A stretch of 64,000 bases of DNA from a phage. Both the position numbers and the translations under genes were made by a program. Positions 47,573 to 55,873 of the stretch are shown here, in pieces. The stretch is from the sequence record OZ556245.1; one strand, given 5' to 3'. The number at the start of each line of letters is the position of its first letter. The first letter of the stretch is position 1. The notes under the pieces are model-generated. The model saw only the letters and a list, made by a program, of their open reading frames with translations. It was not told where the DNA came from and did no database searches.

Positions 47573-47876
47573 TTTCTTCTCGGTTAAATCGGTGTTTGCA
47601 ATGACGGCATTTATAACGAAGATTACTAGTCTGCCAATGGACTAATTGAACCTGTTCAGTACCGCATTCAGGACAATTAGGAACGCTTTTAGAAGCCCTT
47701 TCGCGACGTTCAACCATAGCCATAATGGCATCCCAAGCTGGAGGTTTAAAATCTAAATCATCGCAACCATGAATCTTTCCACACATTTCCAGATCGTCTT
47801 CTTCACCAGCCATAATAATTTTAATTAGACTGGAATTACTTGAAGCTGCAATATCTTCTAATAAGCGCTTTTTCAT
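47559..47876 (-). CDS. zinc-ribbon protein (105 aa)
   Basis: CPECG...CRHCKH motif. Confidence 0.5.
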
Positions 47877-48802
47877 TTCAATACCTCAATAGCATTACGT
47901 AAACCATTTGCTTTTGCATTAAGAGCTTTTAACAATTTGGTGTGTTCGGCAATCTGGGCTTCAACTTCAATTAAACGAGCATTGAGATATTCACGTTCTT
48001 CGCTCAGGTTATCAACCTTTTCTACTTTAGGTTCTTTTACAGCTGTCTTATATGTATTAGGGTTCTTCAGTTTAATTAGAATGCGTGAACTGTATAACAT
48101 TGAACCATTATCTTCGGTTTCGTCATACATTTCTACTACGTCCATGATTTTTAACATCATGCGGAGTTTATAAGACAACGAACGAATAGTTTTGTTGTGC
48201 TTATTAATTTCTCTAGAGTTCATGGTGCCGAGATTACGTGAGTAATAATAAGGAACCTGGATATTAATTAGCACTGATGAACCACCTGGCTTATGTGTTA
48301 CTTCATCAGCAATAACCCAGTCCTTAACATGAACTGTATTTGTACGGTCATCACCAGCAGTAAATAGTTTGCGAGCATGCTTAAAAAGCATATTCACTTG
48401 GGTATTGAATTGACAAGCAAATTTATCAGCAAATTTAGTTTCAGGAATGGTAGATAACCAATCAGCCAAATGGGTCTTTTTAACATCGTTAACAATAGTA
48501 AATTCAACCAAATCGGTTATAGATGTCGTAGATTTAATGAAGCTCGGCTTCATAAAGTTTTTAATGTTATCGCGAGCTACAGTAGAAGATAACATACGAG
48601 AACGTTTAAACCATTCAAGCAAATTGCCTAACGAATGAGAATAAGCGTTTTGAGTATCTTTACAGATATGATTTTCCTGGCCAACATATTGAAGGAAATC
48701 ACGAAGAATATTATTGATTACTGCTCTGTGTCCGATATTATAATTACGGTGTTTAGTAATAAGGCTGTCAAAATAATCAATATAATGTTTACGAGTTTTC
48801 AT
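47873..48802 (-). CDS. hypothetical protein with C-terminal coiled coil (309 aa)
   Basis: ORF track; heptad-like C-terminal 45 aa. Confidence 0.55.
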   Translation of the reverse strand: MKTRKHYIDYFDSLITKHRNYNIGHRAVINNILRDFLQYVGQENHICKDTQNAYSHSLGNLLEWFKRSRMLSSTVARDNIKNFMKPSFIKSTTSITDLVEFTIVNDVKKTHLADWLSTIPETKFADKFACQFNTQVNMLFKHARKLFTAGDDRTNTVHVKDWVIADEVTHKPGGSSVLINIQVPYYYSRNLGTMNSREINKHNKTIRSLSYKLRMMLKIMDVVEMYDETEDNGSMLYSSRILIKLKNPNTYKTAVKEPKVEKVDNLSEEREYLNARLIEVEAQIAEHTKLLKALNAKANGLRNAIEVLK

Positions 48803-48854
48803 GTTCTTCTCACTTGGTTAATGATTTATACTCCGAGCCATCCTTGGCTTTAAA

Positions 48855-49856
48855 TTACTTAATTAACTGTAAAGCTTGTTCAAGACGATCCAGGCGATTA
48901 ACAGATTCTTCCCAAATCCTTTTAGCTTGCTCATATTCTTTCTGCGCTTTATTAGAAATTTCTAGAACTTCTTTATAAGCTTTTTCTAATGCAATAACTT
49001 CTGGACGAATTTCTACCGGTTCAGGTGAATCGTCAAGACATTCCATTAGTTTCTCAAGGGTAGTTTCTTCTTTAGGAGTATTCACAATTTCTTCACATTT
49101 TTGTTGATAAATTTCTTTATCAGTCGGTGAGTACGCACACTTTACTTCACGGAGACTAACTACAATTTTATATCCTTCCCAACCGCATATATTCTTAAAA
49201 GGATAAGTATGAATATTTTCTACTGTTTCCATACAAAGTAATGCGGTCTCTAACTGACGAGTTATATCGCTAGCAATTGAGAAAAATTTATTAATGTTCT
49301 TTTGATTAGCTTCTGGTGTAAAAAATTCATAATTCACAAAAATAGCTGCTTTATTTTTATCAAGTTCATATTCTTTTATGATAATCATATCAGAAGCCCA
49401 AGGATGAATTTGACGATAATCGCCATAGCATAATTTAGAAGCTGATTTTAGAATTTGCTTTTTGAAAAGTCTGAAATTACTAATCCAACGACGAGTAAAA
49501 ATATTCTCAGGGTCTTCTTTATTATTAAGATGATATGAATTAACATCACCGAACCAATTATATCCTACTACATCTTTAGTTCGTTTAATTTCTTTCCCAA
49601 ATTTACCGAGAATATCTTGGTTAACTAAATATGAAAGAAGACGAGAACCTTTGAAGGTTTCCTTAATATCATCTTTATATTCGCGACTAGAAATTTTATG
49701 AACTTCATGAATAAATTTGTTGGAAGAGACAATACTTGCATCAGTATTATTGAGCCATTGATTGATAATGGAAATAACACTATTCTGACTAGACACAGGT
49801 TTAACTTTATCATCAATAACGCTATTGAATGATTTGATATATTCGTTACGAGTCAT
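48855..49856 (-). CDS. hypothetical protein with C-terminal coiled coil (about 333 aa)
   Basis: ORF track 48855..49907 trimmed: first 17 codons are promoter sequence; ATG with GAGGAG SD. Confidence 0.55.
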   Translation of the reverse strand: MTRNEYIKSFNSVIDDKVKPVSSQNSVISIINQWLNNTDASIVSSNKFIHEVHKISSREYKDDIKETFKGSRLLSYLVNQDILGKFGKEIKRTKDVVGYNWFGDVNSYHLNNKEDPENIFTRRWISNFRLFKKQILKSASKLCYGDYRQIHPWASDMIIIKEYELDKNKAAIFVNYEFFTPEANQKNINKFFSIASDITRQLETALLCMETVENIHTYPFKNICGWEGYKIVVSLREVKCAYSPTDKEIYQQKCEEIVNTPKEETTLEKLMECLDDSPEPVEIRPEVIALEKAYKEVLEISNKAQKEYEQAKRIWEESVNRLDRLEQALQLIK

Positions 49857-49885
49857 ATTAATCTCCTCAGTAGAAAGTAAGAACA

Positions 49886-49914
49886 TTATACCACATCCTT
49901 GTGGCAAAGTAAAC
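49886..49914 (-). promoter_or_regulatory. early promoter
   Basis: GTTTAC - 17 nt - TGGTATAAT. Confidence 0.55.
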
Positions 49915-50936
49915 TAGTTTAGTGCATTTAGTGCATTGTTCAGTTTAGAACGTTGCTTCGTAAGATTTTTGACTTTTTCTTGAGCTTTTTCTAGCATCTT
50001 TTCAGCTTCTAACACTTCATTAGTTGCTTTAACGAGTTCATCATCTACTGCCTTGATAGACTTCTCAATCGCATCCGCATGCCATTTTTCAACAGGTTTA
50101 AGACTCGGATTTTCAACAGGAAGAAAATTCACTTTATTGAATTTCCATGCATCTTTATTACTTGAACTATACATCCAAAATTTAGGATCGTTTGATGAGT
50201 AATTGGATAAATTTAAGTTATCTTGCACTTCCTGCTTTTTCTCTTGTGGGACTTCGTCCTTTCTCAAAAAATCGTATTTAAATGAAACGATCATATCAAG
50301 TTCATACGTTGTTGTATGTTCCCAATTTCGCTCAAAATGAGGTAAAATCTTAGACTGAACAGCGGCAACAACATCCATATACTTAAATGCTTCTGTCAAC
50401 TGTGATTTAAGGCATTCGCAAATTGAAAGAGAATTTTTTGTATTAGGTTTAAAGCTAATTCGCGCAGTTCTGTTATTTTCTTTTAATGGTCTTACTTCCA
50501 TCTGAAGAGTATAATCATCAAATTTCAGATTCTTTAAGTTAATATCAGAACCTTTTAATCGACTCGCAATTGATAAAATTTGTTTTAATTGTTTACGGAA
50601 TAGAGCAATAAATCTCCATTCAATACGATAATGATTTGGATTGAAAAATCCAGATGATAAATCGACCTTACTTTGACCAACGCCTTGAACAAATAGAGGA
50701 TTTTTATAATCAATAGTTTTACAGAAATCGGTGAGCTGCTCACGAGCAGTCATTTGTGTAATATATCCTGCTTGGTTAAAATTGCGCACCCATTCACTGC
50801 TGTTCAGATGTTTAAAGGCATGAATGGAACAATTAACTTTACCAAGGTCTAAATTATTTTCACACAAAAACGTCATAGCATCACGAGTATAGCTGGCATT
50901 ACGAACCATATCTTCAATTTGAGAACGAGTTTTCAT
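49914..50936 (-). CDS. hypothetical protein with C-terminal coiled coil (340 aa)
   Basis: ORF track. Confidence 0.55.
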   Translation of the reverse strand: MKTRSQIEDMVRNASYTRDAMTFLCENNLDLGKVNCSIHAFKHLNSSEWVRNFNQAGYITQMTAREQLTDFCKTIDYKNPLFVQGVGQSKVDLSSGFFNPNHYRIEWRFIALFRKQLKQILSIASRLKGSDINLKNLKFDDYTLQMEVRPLKENNRTARISFKPNTKNSLSICECLKSQLTEAFKYMDVVAAVQSKILPHFERNWEHTTTYELDMIVSFKYDFLRKDEVPQEKKQEVQDNLNLSNYSSNDPKFWMYSSSNKDAWKFNKVNFLPVENPSLKPVEKWHADAIEKSIKAVDDELVKATNEVLEAEKMLEKAQEKVKNLTKQRSKLNNALNALN

Positions 50937-50944
50937 GGTGTTCC

Positions 50945-51856
50945 TTAAGATTTAAGTAAATCGACAATTTTAATTAACTTTTCACGCTCAGATTTAGCTT
51001 TACTACTCAGTCCAGATAGTCTGAAAATTTCATCATCATATTGTTGAATAGAAATATTCAGCTCTTCAATTTGCTTATTAAAATAATCAATTTGTTCAGA
51101 ATGTTTTTCGTTACTACGAACTGGTACAGGTTTCGTAGGCAATGTAGTTGAACTGGATTCATCCGGGCGGTAAATTAAAATACAACTTGAACCAATAGGG
51201 CATTTTGCACCAGATGAATATTCTAATGTTCCAGATTCTTTTAAAACTTCAAAAGCTAAACAGAGATGATGCCCCATATTAATATAATCTGTAGAGCGAG
51301 CTCTGATGTAATAATCATCGCCACGAATACTAAATTTAAAGCATTTAAGGTCTTCTGTATTATTGGTCTTAAAAATCATTTGTTTATCTAGACCTTTAGC
51401 TAATCGAGCGCCTAATGCTAATAATCGTCTTTGATTTTCCCACAAATCCGCAATCATTTGATCGAATGATAATTTTGGCATCAGTCGACCATAAAGGTCA
51501 TATCCTTTATTATAATTACGAAGGATTTCATTCGCGTTAATACGAGACAATGCTCCAATTTTATTAAGGGCTTTCATAATGCGATTAGATAAACTCATTC
51601 CAGATCCGTTTGTTCGCTGCAAATGTTTTTCTAATCCAAATCCAATATCAACTTTAAACTTATCTAAAATTTCTGCATGAACATCTCTGTCGATAACATT
51701 CAAATCCAAAGTTGAGTTAAATCTATGAAAAAATTTATCTGGCTCTGCACTGCGAAATACAGTCCATTCATTCATCATTTTTTTATTAACTAAAGATTTA
51801 ATTACTGCATTGACATTATTAATTACTACTGACATATTTTCCTCACTCAATTTCAA
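50945..51856 (-). CDS. hypothetical protein with C-terminal coiled coil (303 aa)
   Basis: ORF track. Confidence 0.55.
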   Translation of the reverse strand: MKLSEENMSVVINNVNAVIKSLVNKKMMNEWTVFRSAEPDKFFHRFNSTLDLNVIDRDVHAEILDKFKVDIGFGLEKHLQRTNGSGMSLSNRIMKALNKIGALSRINANEILRNYNKGYDLYGRLMPKLSFDQMIADLWENQRRLLALGARLAKGLDKQMIFKTNNTEDLKCFKFSIRGDDYYIRARSTDYINMGHHLCLAFEVLKESGTLEYSSGAKCPIGSSCILIYRPDESSSTTLPTKPVPVRSNEKHSEQIDYFNKQIEELNISIQQYDDEIFRLSGLSSKAKSEREKLIKIVDLLKS

Positions 51857-52250
51857 TTTTACTAAATATACAGAATAAGATGGAACAGACTATATAAGCA
51901 CCACACACAGATTGAACTAATACCATTCCAAAGAACCAAACAATATTATCAAACAATGTCTGTTTTACGTCGAAAGGACGTAAACTTACAGTAATATTAT
52001 CACCTTTTTCTATTGAAGAATACATCTCTGGGGAAATATATTCACTAAATCTATAACCGTCTTTTAGTTCATATACGGCAATAAACGATAAACTAGACCC
52101 TTTTCCTTGTGTTCCTGTAATGGTATTAACTACAGTAACATCATAATCTTTATAATGCATATAATCATTAATTGCGTAATAACCATATGCAATTACTACA
52201 CATAAACAACATATCAATAAATTCAATCTTTTAATTATCAACTGTTTCAT
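51843..52250 (-). CDS. membrane protein (135 aa)
   Basis: two predicted transmembrane segments. Confidence 0.5.
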   Translation of the reverse strand: MKQLIIKRLNLLICCLCVVIAYGYYAINDYMHYKDYDVTVVNTITGTQGKGSSLSFIAVYELKDGYRFSEYISPEMYSSIEKGDNITVSLRPFDVKQTLFDNIVWFFGMVLVQSVCGAYIVCSILFCIFSKIEIE

Positions 52251-52305
52251 AATAATCTCAATTAAAAGGGCTTAGAACCATTATACCATCCTTGGTATAA
52301 AGCGG

Positions 52306-52833
52306 TTATGCGAGTACCGTCTTTAACCGTTCTTCAAACTTCCGAAGAGTATTTTGGCGTTCAGCTCTTTGCTTTTTGTAAGTTTCAATACGCTCTGAAA
52401 TGAGAGAGTATCGTTCATTTACTGATTCTTTCATAAAATCAGGAATTTCACGAGAAGCTTTAATCTCGTCAAATTTATCAATAACAGCCTGCTCTTCAGC
52501 AATTAAGTTATCATACATTAAAATATCTTTCTTGATGAACTCAATATCTTCTTGAGTTACACGAGATAATTTAGATGCTTTATCCTTTTTGTACTGTTCG
52601 TTAGTATCACGAGACCAGTGTAATGTACGATTTTTATTCGTATTTTTGTAAATTTCTACAATACCGATCTCATCGATAATAACGATCCAATTCCAACGGG
52701 ATTTGTAAATTTGTCCTCCATCAACAGTGATTTCACCTCCAATTGAGATGTCATTAAAGAACTTGCTTTGCGCTTCAGATTTAAATTTACCATCGTTGTA
52801 ATTTACCAAGTTGAAAATATCTTTAGCGTTCAT
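52306..52833 (-). CDS. hypothetical protein with C-terminal coiled coil (175 aa)
   Basis: ORF track; directly follows conserved promoter-leader cassette. Confidence 0.55.
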   Translation of the reverse strand: MNAKDIFNLVNYNDGKFKSEAQSKFFNDISIGGEITVDGGQIYKSRWNWIVIIDEIGIVEIYKNTNKNRTLHWSRDTNEQYKKDKASKLSRVTQEDIEFIKKDILMYDNLIAEEQAVIDKFDEIKASREIPDFMKESVNERYSLISERIETYKKQRAERQNTLRKFEERLKTVLA

Positions 52834-52859
52834 TTTGTGTTCCTCCGTAGTTGATAGTT

Positions 52860-52891
52860 GTATAGTACCACAGAGGAACAGTCTTGTAAAC
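52860..52891 (-). promoter_or_regulatory. early promoter with conserved leader (cassette copy)
   Basis: near-identical to cassette at 1000..1032. Confidence 0.5.
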
Positions 52892-52893
52892 CA

Positions 52894-53208
52894 CTAAAAG
52901 AAACTTCTTTCACATTTTTTTCCACTGAACCATGCACTTACCGCTTTCTTGGTCTCAGGAGCAGTGTTATCCATAAACCATTCAAAGGCAGCCTTTTTAT
53001 GATTCTGGAGGGCTTCTCGGGCTTTAATCTGCTCACGGTCTATTAACACTAACATATGAGCCTTTCTTGTCACCATGGGCTTCTTATGATTTTTTGAATA
53101 CTCCCAGTCATTTGTCCATCGCATTGTCGTTGCGAACTGAAATACTGCTTCTTTAATTTTAGTTTCGTAAATTTCACGAGCCTTTGAGTATAACATCACT
53201 ACCTCCAT
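52894..53208 (-). CDS. hypothetical protein (104 aa)
   Basis: ORF track. Confidence 0.45.
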   Translation of the reverse strand: MEVVMLYSKAREIYETKIKEAVFQFATTMRWTNDWEYSKNHKKPMVTRKAHMLVLIDREQIKAREALQNHKKAAFEWFMDNTAPETKKAVSAWFSGKKCERSFF

Positions 53209-53297
53209 TCACCAGTTTAATTCTAGTCATCTTTTTAATGGCAGTCCATATAATCTATTTCTGAACTGCCTTTTTGTCATAGAAGTCCTCTTATGAA

Positions 53298-54284
53298 TTA
53301 TTTCAGAAGAGTAACCTCAGCAATTTCTTCCCAACCGTTTTTGTCGGTCATAATAAAGTCAGCAAGATAAAGAGCAGTACGCAGTGAAACATTGCGTAAA
53401 CGATTAACATTAACTTTCATCCATGATAATGCTTTATAAGTTTCTTCATCAGAAAGACCGCGCTTTTGCATCATGTCAGTTGAAAGAATAACATCTTCAA
53501 CCCTGACCATAATTTCTTCATTAGTGTGAACACCCAAATCTAAATAAACCGAGCGGGACACTAATGCTTGTAAATGTGGAGCAAGTTTAGTACCACGGTC
53601 TAATTCGCGGTCAATGTCAACGTTTGTGATAAAAACAATCGTTCCTTTAAATTCAAACTCACGCTCAATGCCTTTTTCTTCTAAGTAAGAAGACGCAGTG
53701 CTCCAGCAGACTTTACGGGTCTCTCCAGTGTCCAGAGCGGCTTTTAGAAGATTAAGAATATCCATATCAGAGAAAACATCCACATCATCAATCAAAAGGA
53801 CAGAATTCTCTTCACGATTATTCCAAAGCTGCTCATAAAGACCAATACCAGAGATTTTACCATTAATGCTTTTATATTCAATGTATCCAATATCATTTGC
53901 TTTATTCAAAGCTTTATCTAAAGAATACGTTTTACCAATACCTGCTGCGCCAGAGATAATTAATGAACGAATATTTCCATTAATAATACCATTCGTCATC
54001 ATTCCCATAACATTAAATCTTTTATTAATGCGGGTTTTCATATCTTCATATGATTCTTTAACTTCTTCAACTTTTACACCATCATATGAAATATCTGATT
54101 TGTAAACCCAAACACCGCGACGCTTACCGTCAATTTCAACAAAAACTTTACCATCTCCTTGTGCATCTACCGGAGCATTATCTGGGAACCATTCGCCTAA
54201 GAGCTCAAAAGTTCCAGAGATTTCTTTACCGAAGTAGATACCCTTATTGATAGTTACAGTTTTCATTTTATTCTCCAATTTCAC
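53298..54284 (-). CDS. AAA+ family ATPase (328 aa)
   Basis: Walker A GAAGIGKT, Walker B VLLIDDVD, sensor-1-like FITN. Confidence 0.65.
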   Translation of the reverse strand: MKLENKMKTVTINKGIYFGKEISGTFELLGEWFPDNAPVDAQGDGKVFVEIDGKRRGVWVYKSDISYDGVKVEEVKESYEDMKTRINKRFNVMGMMTNGIINGNIRSLIISGAAGIGKTYSLDKALNKANDIGYIEYKSINGKISGIGLYEQLWNNREENSVLLIDDVDVFSDMDILNLLKAALDTGETRKVCWSTASSYLEEKGIEREFEFKGTIVFITNVDIDRELDRGTKLAPHLQALVSRSVYLDLGVHTNEEIMVRVEDVILSTDMMQKRGLSDEETYKALSWMKVNVNRLRNVSLRTALYLADFIMTDKNGWEEIAEVTLLK

Positions 54285-54335
54285 ATTTGTTTTGATAGGG
54301 TAATAGTATCACACTACTACCCTACTGTAAACAAT

Positions 54336-54599
54336 TTATTTTAATGTTTGCCAAATTTTTACTGCTTCGCGACGAGATACTTCTACAGCTCCAAGTTCTA
54401 CGGCTTTTTGGCGTCGGCGAGCATGTAAGTCATAATGTTTAATGCGTTTATCTTGAAACCAAGAACGTTTCATTCCTATTGCTTCTGCCATTTTATGAAG
54501 CTCTTCAATATCTCCATCAGTGAACATATGACAATTTTTAGTTGGATGACCGCGAAGTTTCCATCCATGATTCATTAAAACATCTACGTAAACTGTCAT
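54336..54599 (-). CDS. DUF4031-like small protein (87 aa)
   Basis: MTVYVD...CHMFTDGDIEELHKMAEAIGMKRSWFQ...HYDL pattern; translationally coupled to upstream 49-aa ORF. Confidence 0.5.
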   Translation of the reverse strand: MTVYVDVLMNHGWKLRGHPTKNCHMFTDGDIEELHKMAEAIGMKRSWFQDKRIKHYDLHARRRQKAVELGAVEVSRREAVKIWQTLK

Positions 54600-54745
54600 T
54601 GATTCTGCTCCAAATATGTTTCTATAATTTTCTGAGCGAGATAAACTGCGTTATCTTCAGTTGCATCTTCTAAGAAATTTTCAAAATAAACTGAAATTTC
54701 TTCTGTGTCAATCAACTTTTTTACTTCAATTAACGTAGTTTTCAT
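54596..54745 (-). CDS. small acidic protein (49 aa)
   Basis: hand-translated MKTTLIEVKKLIDTEEISVYFENFLEDATEDNAVYLAQKIIETYLEQNQ; ATG directly after conserved leader GGGGAATAAA; stop overlaps next ATG. Confidence 0.4.
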   Translation of the reverse strand: MKTTLIEVKKLIDTEEISVYFENFLEDATEDNAVYLAQKIIETYLEQNQ

Positions 54746-54777
54746 TTTATTCCCCAAATCCGTATCAGTTGATAGTT

Positions 54778-54809
54778 GTATAGTACCATAAAGCTTTATG
54801 CTTGTAAAC
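54778..54809 (-). promoter_or_regulatory. early promoter with conserved leader (cassette copy)
   Basis: GTTTAC ... GGTACTATAC plus leader ending GGGGAATAAA. Confidence 0.5.
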
Positions 54810-54839
54810 CGTTTTGTGAAAAAATTTTGAAATAAAAAA

Positions 54840-54860
54840 GGGAGCCCGAAGGCTCCCTAT
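54840..54860 (-). terminator. UUCG-tetraloop hairpin after nucleotidyltransferase gene
   Basis: AGGGAGCCUUCGGGCUCCCUUUUUU. Confidence 0.6.
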
Positions 54861-55873
54861 CATTTATAATAACTTCGATGGTTTTCAAGATAAACCCTCT
54901 CAAGGAAGTCATCCCAAAAACACATGTCTACTTTTTGCTGCATACCGTTCTTAGAAGCTTCAATGGATGCTGCTTCTACTTGATCGACCACATCTTCCAA
55001 AAACTCTTGAACAGTTTTAAATGGATGTTTACCCAACTTCACGTCGAGAATAAATGGAGCGTCTTGAAGTGGATAGACTAAGTCACCAGTTTTGTAAATT
55101 TCCAATAGTTGGAGTCCACCACGGCAAGCATGACTCAGAGCTTTCCAGTCAATGCCCTCATTAGCTTCGGCCTTACGAGCGCGTTCGCCGTATTCAGCAT
55201 CAAGTTTATTCAAAGATTGCTTAAGCTCGATAAGAGAAAGCGTTGTTTGATATTTACGACCCAACACGGTGTAGAACGTTTGTGGGCCTGTTTTCTCATG
55301 ATTATGGAATACCCATTCACAGAATTCGTTCTCTGGAAGACGATGCTTAATATCTTCAACTTTAGTTCGACGCTGCTTAATGGAACCGTCTTCTTGGTAA
55401 TCAACCCATTGCTCAGGGATTTGATTAACTACTTTCAATACATCACGTAATGCGGCCAAACGAGAACCCTTAACACCGTATTTAGAAGCTTGCTTGCGAA
55501 CATATCCTAAATAGGATTTCATGTTAGTCGTATAAAAACGAGAACGATTGTCTTGAATAAACTTCCATACATCAGGCAAATCAGATTTAACCACTAGTTC
55601 CGGTGGAGTGTGGAGCATATCCAATGCTACAGTTTCACCATCTGCAGCTAATTTAAAGAAATACTTAAGACTATATAGTTCATGGTCAATATCATCTTTA
55701 GTGTTTTTAGATGATGTGTTGTTAGTGTTTTTACTCATATGCTCTTTAACATTTCCGATAAGAATATCGCGAGCAGGAGGAACAAAGATTTCTTTAAAAT
55801 CTACATCAGATTCTGGAGTAGAAGTTCCATAAAGATGACTACCAAAATAGCTTTTCATTACTGTTTTCATCAT
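54860..55873 (-). CDS. Pol-beta-superfamily nucleotidyltransferase (337 aa)
   Basis: N-terminal GS-x10-SDVD nucleotidyltransferase signature (GSHLYGTSTPESDVDF). Confidence 0.55.
   Translation of the reverse strand: MMKTVMKSYFGSHLYGTSTPESDVDFKEIFVPPARDILIGNVKEHMSKNTNNTSSKNTKDDIDHELYSLKYFFKLAADGETVALDMLHTPPELVVKSDLPDVWKFIQDNRSRFYTTNMKSYLGYVRKQASKYGVKGSRLAALRDVLKVVNQIPEQWVDYQEDGSIKQRRTKVEDIKHRLPENEFCEWVFHNHEKTGPQTFYTVLGRKYQTTLSLIELKQSLNKLDAEYGERARKAEANEGIDWKALSHACRGGLQLLEIYKTGDLVYPLQDAPFILDVKLGKHPFKTVQEFLEDVVDQVEAASIEASKNGMQQKVDMCFWDDFLERVYLENHRSYYK

Follow-up and report, generated by a model that had tools for sequence, protein, structure and literature searches.

nrdC.3–nrdC.6 of a T4-like phage as probable diverged tandem paralogs and candidate counter-defence factors

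The window analysed here, a 64,000-nucleotide stretch of phage DNA (sequence record OZ556245.1), comes from a Tequatrovirus, a T4-like coliphage, and carries a cluster of genes that are named nrdC.3, nrdC.4, nrdC.5, nrdC.6, nrdC.7 and nrdC.8 after the annotated relative ime09. T4 is the best-studied virulent phage, and most of its about 130 accessory genes are without known function. Here we propose that nrdC.3–nrdC.6 arose by ancient tandem duplication within one superfamily and have since diverged strongly, and that they are accessory to the phage and candidates for counter-defence; this is the best explanation of those weighed, and we put its probability at roughly 70%. The original prediction had taken nrdC.3–nrdC.6 and nrdC.8 as five genes in a row, a paralogous family sharing a C-terminal coiled coil as a common oligomerisation or targeting module beneath unrelated N-terminal effector domains. 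All five open reading frames (ORFs) are present and read from the minus strand, but nrdC.7 interrupts the row between nrdC.6 and nrdC.8; the paralogy holds for nrdC.3–nrdC.6 and fails for nrdC.8. The genes, three separate protein families and one characterised member (nrdC.5) were already known; what is new is that these three families are merged into a single superfamily extending to distant T4-like phages, and that nrdC.3, nrdC.4 and nrdC.6 are put forward as candidates.

Homology of the protein bodies

By sequence, nrdC.3 and nrdC.4 are clear full-length homologues. BLASTP aligned them across 226 N-terminal residues (E 3e-7), and hhalign gave a probability of 98% with E 4e-15, which changed little when the tails were removed (E 1e-14). 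In a Smith-Waterman comparison of the N-terminal parts, the z-score was 13. Both proteins match phrog_1435 from end to end and have the motifs MTRxEYI, FKxSRLLS and GDxRT in common. Furthermore, all homologues that the nrdC.3/4 profile recovered carry PF26897, among them proteins 95–98% identical to nrdC.4; nrdC.3 and nrdC.4 were assigned to this family through the annotation of these homologues.

The third protein, nrdC.5, matches DUF7235 (PF23882) at 420.8 bits against a cut-off of 30, covering model positions 1–307 of 307. Against the nrdC.3/4 profile it scored a probability of 89–92% with E 6e-7 to 2e-6, and a separate hhalign comparison yielded 90.8% and E 1.2e-6. The 223 aligned columns start near residue 50 and extend to the end of the protein, where drLeqAlElLK is paired with sKLxxAlxALk. 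As the alignment reaches the very last residues, the tail belongs to the inherited architecture. Profile–profile similarity over most of the length is reached both for nrdC.3 with nrdC.4 and for nrdC.3/4 with nrdC.5.

The protein nrdC.6 carries PF26899, which was found on 105/105 of its homologues and on the 100%-identical database protein P0066. Predicted structures suggest that it is a remote member of the nrdC.3–nrdC.5 superfamily. In a Foldseek search, the AlphaFold2 (AF2) model of nrdC.4 matched the BFVD model of the phage JS10 nrdC.6 with E 4.3e-5 over 339 columns. The order of elements is identical in the AF2 models of nrdC.4 and nrdC.6: helix-helix-short helix-strand-strand-helix-strand-strand, a linker and a terminal helix. 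In three independent weak profile alignments of nrdC.6, the motifs paired and their order are also identical. The supposed unrelatedness of the N-terminal parts is refuted by these matches, at the hhalign level for nrdC.3/4 and nrdC.5 and at the Foldseek level for nrdC.6.

The nrdC.4 model consists of an N-terminal helical domain, central helices followed by a strand-strand-helix-strand-strand unit, a linker and a long C-terminal helix. Judging from the nrdC.4 and nrdC.6 models, the architecture common to the superfamily, of 300–340 residues, would begin with the N-terminal helical domain and continue through a central unit in which two to three helices precede strand-strand-helix-strand-strand. 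After a low-confidence linker, it would end in a terminal amphipathic helix of about 45–50 residues with an unbroken heptad pattern.

Foldseek searches with the nrdC.4 and nrdC.6 models converge on a common set of uncharacterised proteins, about 300–335 residues long, from distant T4-like phages (E 1e-7 to 1e-3). These phages are Pectobacterium phage PM2, Enterobacter phage IME523, Acinetobacter phages Acj9 and Acj61, Klebsiella phage Mineola, Erwinia phage Cronus and Yersinia phage fHe-Yen9-01; Acj61 contributes two matched proteins with consecutive accession numbers. At the sequence level, an exhaustive HMMER search with nrdC.4 of 1.84 billion representatives gave 8 matches only, word-indexed homologue searches returned close relatives only, and in IMG/VR, nrdC.8 matched 15 loci, every one of them in phage groups already found. 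As far as these results show, the families are confined at the sequence level to Tequatrovirus, Mosigvirus, Dhakavirus and Gaprivervirus, and only structure extends further; within these searches, the nrdC.3–nrdC.6 superfamily was found only in T4-like phages. Sequence searches of the PDB gave no match for nrdC.5 or nrdC.6 and, for the others, only designed helical repeats or generic coiled coils. Neither NCBIfam nor PADLOC gave a match above threshold.

Candidate distant members are found in other T4-like genera, in the corresponding interval between nrdC.11 and nrdC. A 324-residue candidate of Klebsiella phage SmallBear (L024, 14997–15971) is matched by the nrdC.3/4 profile with E 7e-6 and possesses a heptad tail, as does a candidate of Acinetobacter phage Ac42 (L023, 17853–18899); both cases are partly resolved. 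Pectobacterium phage POP12 (L022, 11218–12162) has one candidate copy adjoining nrdC.11, without the heptad tail.

The C-terminal heptad helix

The heptad helix of nrdC.3–nrdC.6 is real and non-random. Within the last 50 residues of the four proteins, positions a and d are 86–93% hydrophobic, compared with 17–31% at the other positions. The heptads are uninterrupted over seven repeats (p <= 0.004 versus shuffles), and all four proteins follow one register relative to a terminal motif L-x3-[ILV]-x2-[LI]-[KN]. In the AF2 model of nrdC.4 (mean predicted local distance difference test score, pLDDT, 83.5), the tail is a single terminal helix of 48 residues. In that of nrdC.6 (mean pLDDT 78), it is formed by helices 243–272 and 278–295, of 30 and 18 residues. 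Heptad periodicity over at least 4–5 heptads in a helix, as expected of a coiled coil, is found in nrdC.3–nrdC.6 and is marginal in nrdC.8.

As a window-wide control, we scored all 80 non-overlapping ORFs with a length of 80 residues or more over their last 49 residues, counting as positive those with p <= 0.01 and at least 80% hydrophobic residues at a and d. Five of the 80 ORFs passed, and four of these five are the adjacent nrdC.3–nrdC.6; by our own arithmetic, four of five positives would form such a run with a chance of about 2e-4. Orthologues of all four genes in Mosigvirus, Dhakavirus and Gaprivervirus retain the pattern, which is also seen in the more distant candidate homologues of Klebsiella and Acinetobacter phages. 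Moreover, the tail is the best-conserved part of the protein within each orthologous group, with identities for the last 50 residues versus the rest of 70% versus 41% in nrdC.4 and 62% versus 46% in nrdC.6. The predicted C-terminal helix was therefore borne out for these four proteins and not for nrdC.8, the tail of which is 64% hydrophobic at a and d (p about 0.03), below the window-wide threshold; the nrdC.8 orthologues show no heptad signal (p 0.23–0.36).

Comparison of the tails with one another gave a different picture. None of the 10 pairs of last 60 residues scored above heptad-class-preserving shuffles in Smith-Waterman alignment at p < 0.05, so that the pairwise similarity expected of the C-terminal 60 residues disappears once heptad periodicity is kept in the null. 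Against plain shuffles, p < 0.05 was reached in 4/10 pairs, and in none after correction for ten tests. Profile hidden Markov models (HMMs) of the last 60 residues per group were run on the other groups, and their scores lay inside the range of 2,000 shuffles with the single exception of the nrdC.5 model on nrdC.3 (19 bits versus a shuffle maximum of 13). End-anchored tail profile scores against column-permuted nulls gave marginal signals only. A search for DNA-level repeats or gene conversion between the genes found only short chance matches, the sole exception being the ATGAAAACTCGT start common to nrdC.3 and nrdC.5. As judged from these alignments, the tails have composition, periodicity and position in common, not a recognisable common sequence module. 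A homologous tail module recognisable by sequence was rejected, as no tail pair beats the heptad-preserving shuffles.

The conserved helix plausibly mediates oligomerisation: it may form a coiled coil by which each protein self-associates. The tails are conserved within groups and different between groups, which would fit homotypic pairing.

Variability, function and alternative explanations

Tandem families of fast-evolving accessory genes are to be expected in the variable regions of T4-like genomes. The genes nrdC.3–nrdC.6 are dispensable and variably present, recombine with one another and evolve faster than their neighbours. Tequatrovirus carries four copies, Dhakavirus and Gaprivervirus carry three (nrdC.4-like, nrdC.5-like and nrdC.6-like), and Mosigvirus carries two or three. 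In the phage collection, nrdC.8 and nrdC.6 are each found in 742 records, nrdC.3 in 654, nrdC.5 in 582 and nrdC.4 in 554. Identity between genera amounts to 22–28% for nrdC.5, 33–51% for nrdC.6 and 44–51% for nrdC.4, and to 68–85% for the neighbour nrdC.8 and about 78–85% for nrdC.11. Within Tequatrovirus, the ratio of nonsynonymous to synonymous substitution rates (dN/dS) is 0.13–0.26 for nrdC.3–nrdC.6 versus 0.02–0.04 for nrdC, nrdC.8, nrdC.10 and nrdC.11 (0.04 for nrdC.8). A second allele type of nrdC.3 occurs in this genus (L014, 11024–11950; L021, 11033–11959), only about 61% identical to the first, although the genes flanking it are at least 94% identical between the genomes; by our own reading of the sequences, the C-terminal helix is about 85% identical between the two allele types. 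The nrdC.1–6 block is among the large fragments lost from viable genome-reduced T4 mutants (PMC9825161).

Rearrangements between the copies of the array are frequent. In phage Pinarejo (L006, 5001–5141), nrdC.6 is reduced to its last 47 codons, and phage ACG-C40 (L025, 4805–5216) lacks nrdC.4 together with most of nrdC.3 and nrdC.5, of which out-of-frame remnants are left. A split nrdC.4 is found in one IMG/VR genome, an internal tandem duplication of 83 residues in the nrdC.6 of phage Sf25 (P0065), and a fusion of nrdC.5 to nrdC.3 in the metagenomic protein P0056; natural deletions or fusions are listed also for locus L007. In the isolated Salmonella phage Manna (L026, 4215–5252), nrdC.5 is deleted and an in-frame hybrid joins nrdC.6 residues 1 to about 269 to nrdC.4 residues 251–333, with a short QQxxxEI similarity at the junction.

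The sole member with an experimental phenotype is T4 NrdC.5, the expression of which lets a deletion mutant plate again on E. coli with the SIR2-domain defence gene dsr1 (Srikant et al. 2022, eLife, PMC9391042). The nrdC.5 of the window belongs to the same Pfam family and lies at the same genomic position as T4-type nrdC.5. Given that nrdC.5 switches off Dsr1, and that nrdC.3 and nrdC.4 are its paralogs by sequence and nrdC.6 by predicted structure, these three are candidates for similar roles. They would likewise be host-range or counter-defence factors, each perhaps binding a different host target via its diverged body. Since the paralogs are at most 20–25% identical to NrdC.5, Dsr1 should not be assumed to be their target.

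Existing databases keep three separate families without assigned function, PF26897 (nrdC.3 and nrdC.4), PF23882/DUF7235 (nrdC.5) and PF26899 (nrdC.6), together with PHROGs 1435, 2351 and 2257; only PF26897 and phrog_1435 already unite nrdC.3 with nrdC.4. The known counter-defence clusters of T4-like phages, namely the dmd/tifA/adfA 'anti-TA island' and the internal proteins IPI–IPIII (PMC9391042), are also dispensable, variable between isolates, clustered and host-range-determining via specific defences. They consist of unrelated small inhibitors, whereas nrdC.3–nrdC.6 are paralogs of one multi-domain protein of about 300 residues. DSAD1, the anti-DSR2 protein of Bacillus phages (PMC10981675, PMC11087589), is likewise phage-encoded and neutralises a NADase defence of the SIR2 type. 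As a working analogy, it provides an inhibitor that binds the sensor and blocks its activation by a structural phage protein. However, DSAD1 targets DSR2 and comes from another phage group, and it is likened to NrdC.5 by analogy only.

The outcome turns three 'hypothetical proteins', nrdC.3, nrdC.4 and nrdC.6, into specific testable host-range or counter-defence candidates, and the shared scaffold and C-terminal helix indicate what to mutate. Homologues also occur in T4-like phages of Klebsiella, Acinetobacter, Pectobacterium, Yersinia and Erwinia. We regard the result as useful, moderately interesting and directly testable, not as surprising.

Several points weigh against reading the four genes as one superfamily of self-associating counter-defence factors. 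The sequence-profile similarity of nrdC.6 to nrdC.3–nrdC.5 is non-significant (E 0.007–0.2), its link relies on predicted structures with modest TM-scores (0.38–0.50), and the fold evidence covers two AF2 models only, those of nrdC.4 and nrdC.6. In the monomer prediction, nrdC.6 ends in a back-folded hairpin, not in a single coiled-coil helix, whereas the heptad helix would have to self-associate. The dN/dS ratios are below 1 overall and therefore give no direct sign of positive selection. Finally, an anti-defence role of nrdC.3, nrdC.4 and nrdC.6 would be guilt by homology and context, argued from the established paralogy and accessory, fast-evolving character of the genes and the established function of one member, nrdC.5.

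Four other explanations were weighed. In the first, the array would be a repertoire of immune-sensor blockers on one scaffold. Each body would occupy the sensor domain of its own host receptor, different from those of the other paralogs and normally recognising a conserved phage structural protein, and the group-specific coiled coil would give multivalency. For nrdC.5, the domain occupied would be the capsid-sensing TPR of Dsr1, which recognises phage major capsid proteins according to a 2026 preprint (PMC12803255). If so, mimicry of virion proteins might account for the central domain's weak resemblance to tail-terminator-type folds. In this specific form, the proposal appears unlikely.

Similarly doubtful is a function of the family unrelated to immunity, such as nucleic-acid binding or regulation in early infection, with the anti-Dsr1 effect of nrdC.5 as a side effect. 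The N-terminal helices of nrdC.3 do match the SAM-like N-terminal domain of tyrosine recombinases, with E 0.08 in Pfam and E 0.001 in NCBIfam (the latter far short of the curated cut-off), but all of these matches are below the curated thresholds. Moreover, the genes are dispensable and variably present, and counter-defence is the only experimental phenotype, that of nrdC.5.

Alternatively, the paralogs might assemble via their heptad helices into mixed hetero-oligomers, possibly with nrdC.8, and act as one complex. The identical register and terminal motif in the four paralogs, the adjacency of the genes on one strand and the presence of nrdC.8 and nrdC.6 in the same 742 phage records would agree with such an assembly. 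However, the group-specific tails, conserved within each group, fit homotypic pairing better, individual copies are freely lost in natural isolates, the nrdC.8 orthologues have no heptad signal, and plasmid-expressed nrdC.5 alone rescues infection on Dsr1 cells (PMC9391042). We consider this assembly improbable.

Least probable, by our estimate, is the originally predicted common C-terminal module shuffled onto unrelated effector domains in five genes: an E/K/L/N-rich helix does end all five proteins and is the best-conserved segment of each orthologous group, the N-terminal part of nrdC.8 does differ, and the Manna chimera joins an nrdC.6 body to an nrdC.4 tail in frame, but that chimera is a deletion between neighbouring paralogs that gained no foreign head, the 3' ends contain no DNA-level repeat, and nrdC.8 has a weak heptad signal that its orthologues lack. 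The tails are no more alike than composition and periodicity make them, and the N-terminal domains are homologous, by sequence profile for nrdC.3/4/5 and by predicted structure for nrdC.6; these two findings largely refute a module with varied heads. Homologous bodies and tails without shared sequence are best explained by tandem paralogs that diverged while each kept the ancestral helix, and not by heads shuffled onto a common module.

The locus, its annotation and neighbouring genes

A 5.8-kb stretch of the locus shows 99.4% identity to Escherichia phage UGKSEcP2 and is matched by 742 records of T4-like phages. In ime09, the nrdC.3–nrdC.8 block is flanked by the thioredoxin gene nrdC on one side and by nrdC.9, nrdC.10 and nrdC.11 on the other. 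The features of the locus are given in Table 1.

Table 1. Genes and features of the nrdC.3–nrdC.8 locus (window coordinates)
Feature	Coordinates	Strand	Description
nrdC.3	47873..48802	-	309 amino acids (aa); superfamily member; phrog_1435 E 7e-116; close homologues with PF26897; full-length homology to nrdC.4
nrdC.4	48855..49856	-	333 aa; superfamily member; phrog_1435 E 1e-165; AF2 model pLDDT 83.5
nrdC.5	49914..50936	-	340 aa; Pfam DUF7235 E 4.7e-126; ~90% identical orthologue of the T4 anti-Dsr1 protein
nrdC.6	50945..51835	-	296 aa; PF26899; AF2 pLDDT 78; putative remote, structure-level superfamily member
nrdC.7	51843..52250	-	135 aa; predicted membrane protein inside the array; outside the family
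nrdC.8	52306..52833	-	175 aa; phrog_2274; separate highly conserved protein, C-terminal half helical; outside the family
nrdC.3 C-terminal heptad helix	47876..48025	-	last 50 residues
nrdC.4 C-terminal heptad helix	48858..49004	-	residues ~285-333; one 48-residue helix in the model
nrdC.5 C-terminal heptad helix	49917..50066	-	last 50 residues; strongest heptad signal (93% hydrophobic a/d)
nrdC.6 C-terminal helical region	50948..51109	-	residues 243-296; two helices in the monomer model, heptad register continuous
nrdC.4 central strand-strand-helix-strand-strand unit	49152..49385	-	model residues ~157-234; unit common to nrdC.6
nrdC.6 equivalent strand-strand-helix-strand-strand unit	51170..51340	-	model residues 166-222
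Promoter-like site TTTACT-17-TATAAT, extended -10 TG	49885..49913	-	nrdC.5/nrdC.4 gap; consensus match only
Promoter-like site TTTACA-17-TACTAT	52862..52890	-	upstream of nrdC.8; consensus match only

Translation of nrdC.6 most likely starts at ATG 51835, not at TTG 51856, since the former has a GAGG ribosome-binding site directly behind the nrdC.7 stop codon. For nrdC.4, the start at ATG 49856 is well supported, because a GAGGAG ribosome-binding site precedes it and the orthologues begin MTR(N/T)EYI. In the 343-residue nrdC.4 of many records, the upstream ATG falls within the -10 box of the TTTACT-17-TATAAT promoter-like site. A scan of promoters and terminators gave a site count no higher than expected from shuffles; the two intergenic promoter-like sites are reported in Table 1.

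This over-long nrdC.4 start is one of two propagated annotations corrected here, the other being 'thioredoxin' on the nrdC.x genes. Many phage records place that label on nrdC.3–nrdC.11 (47873–55873 in the window), apparently from the gene-name prefix, and a Pfam scan found no thioredoxin or reductase domain in the mislabelled proteins. On the basis of this labelling, nrdC.8 was treated as a 'nucleotide reductase' in a 2026 paper (PMC13275509).

The protein nrdC.8 is not a member of the family, and its tail resembles the others only superficially. It is excluded because it has no profile link (E at least 0.09 against each of nrdC.3–nrdC.6), half the length, a different selective regime and no conserved heptad tail. 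It is unusually conserved for a variable region, with at least 99% identity in 341 records and 68–85% between genera, and accompanies the array in all 742 records. Its N-terminal part appears beta-rich by eye.

The gene nrdC.7 lies within the array in Tequatrovirus and adjoins nrdC in Mosigvirus. In Dhakavirus and Gaprivervirus, a different small hydrophobic ORF is situated between the nrdC.6-like and nrdC.5-like genes. Outside the window, the small ORFs in question were seen at L005, 9899–10312, and L002, 6712–6948. Beyond nrdC.8, nrdC.10 (53298–54284) shows sub-threshold matches to AAA/STAND-type NTPases, and nrdC.11 (54860–55873) matches an RlaP-type nucleotidyltransferase above the Pfam cut-off; by tblastn, nrdC.11 is matched in 1,510 phage records, Vibrio and Sinorhizobium phages among them. 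Between nrdC.11 and nrdC.10, ACG-C40 carries an ORF annotated as the ADP-ribosylase ModB, and Manna has an unannotated ORF of the same size there.

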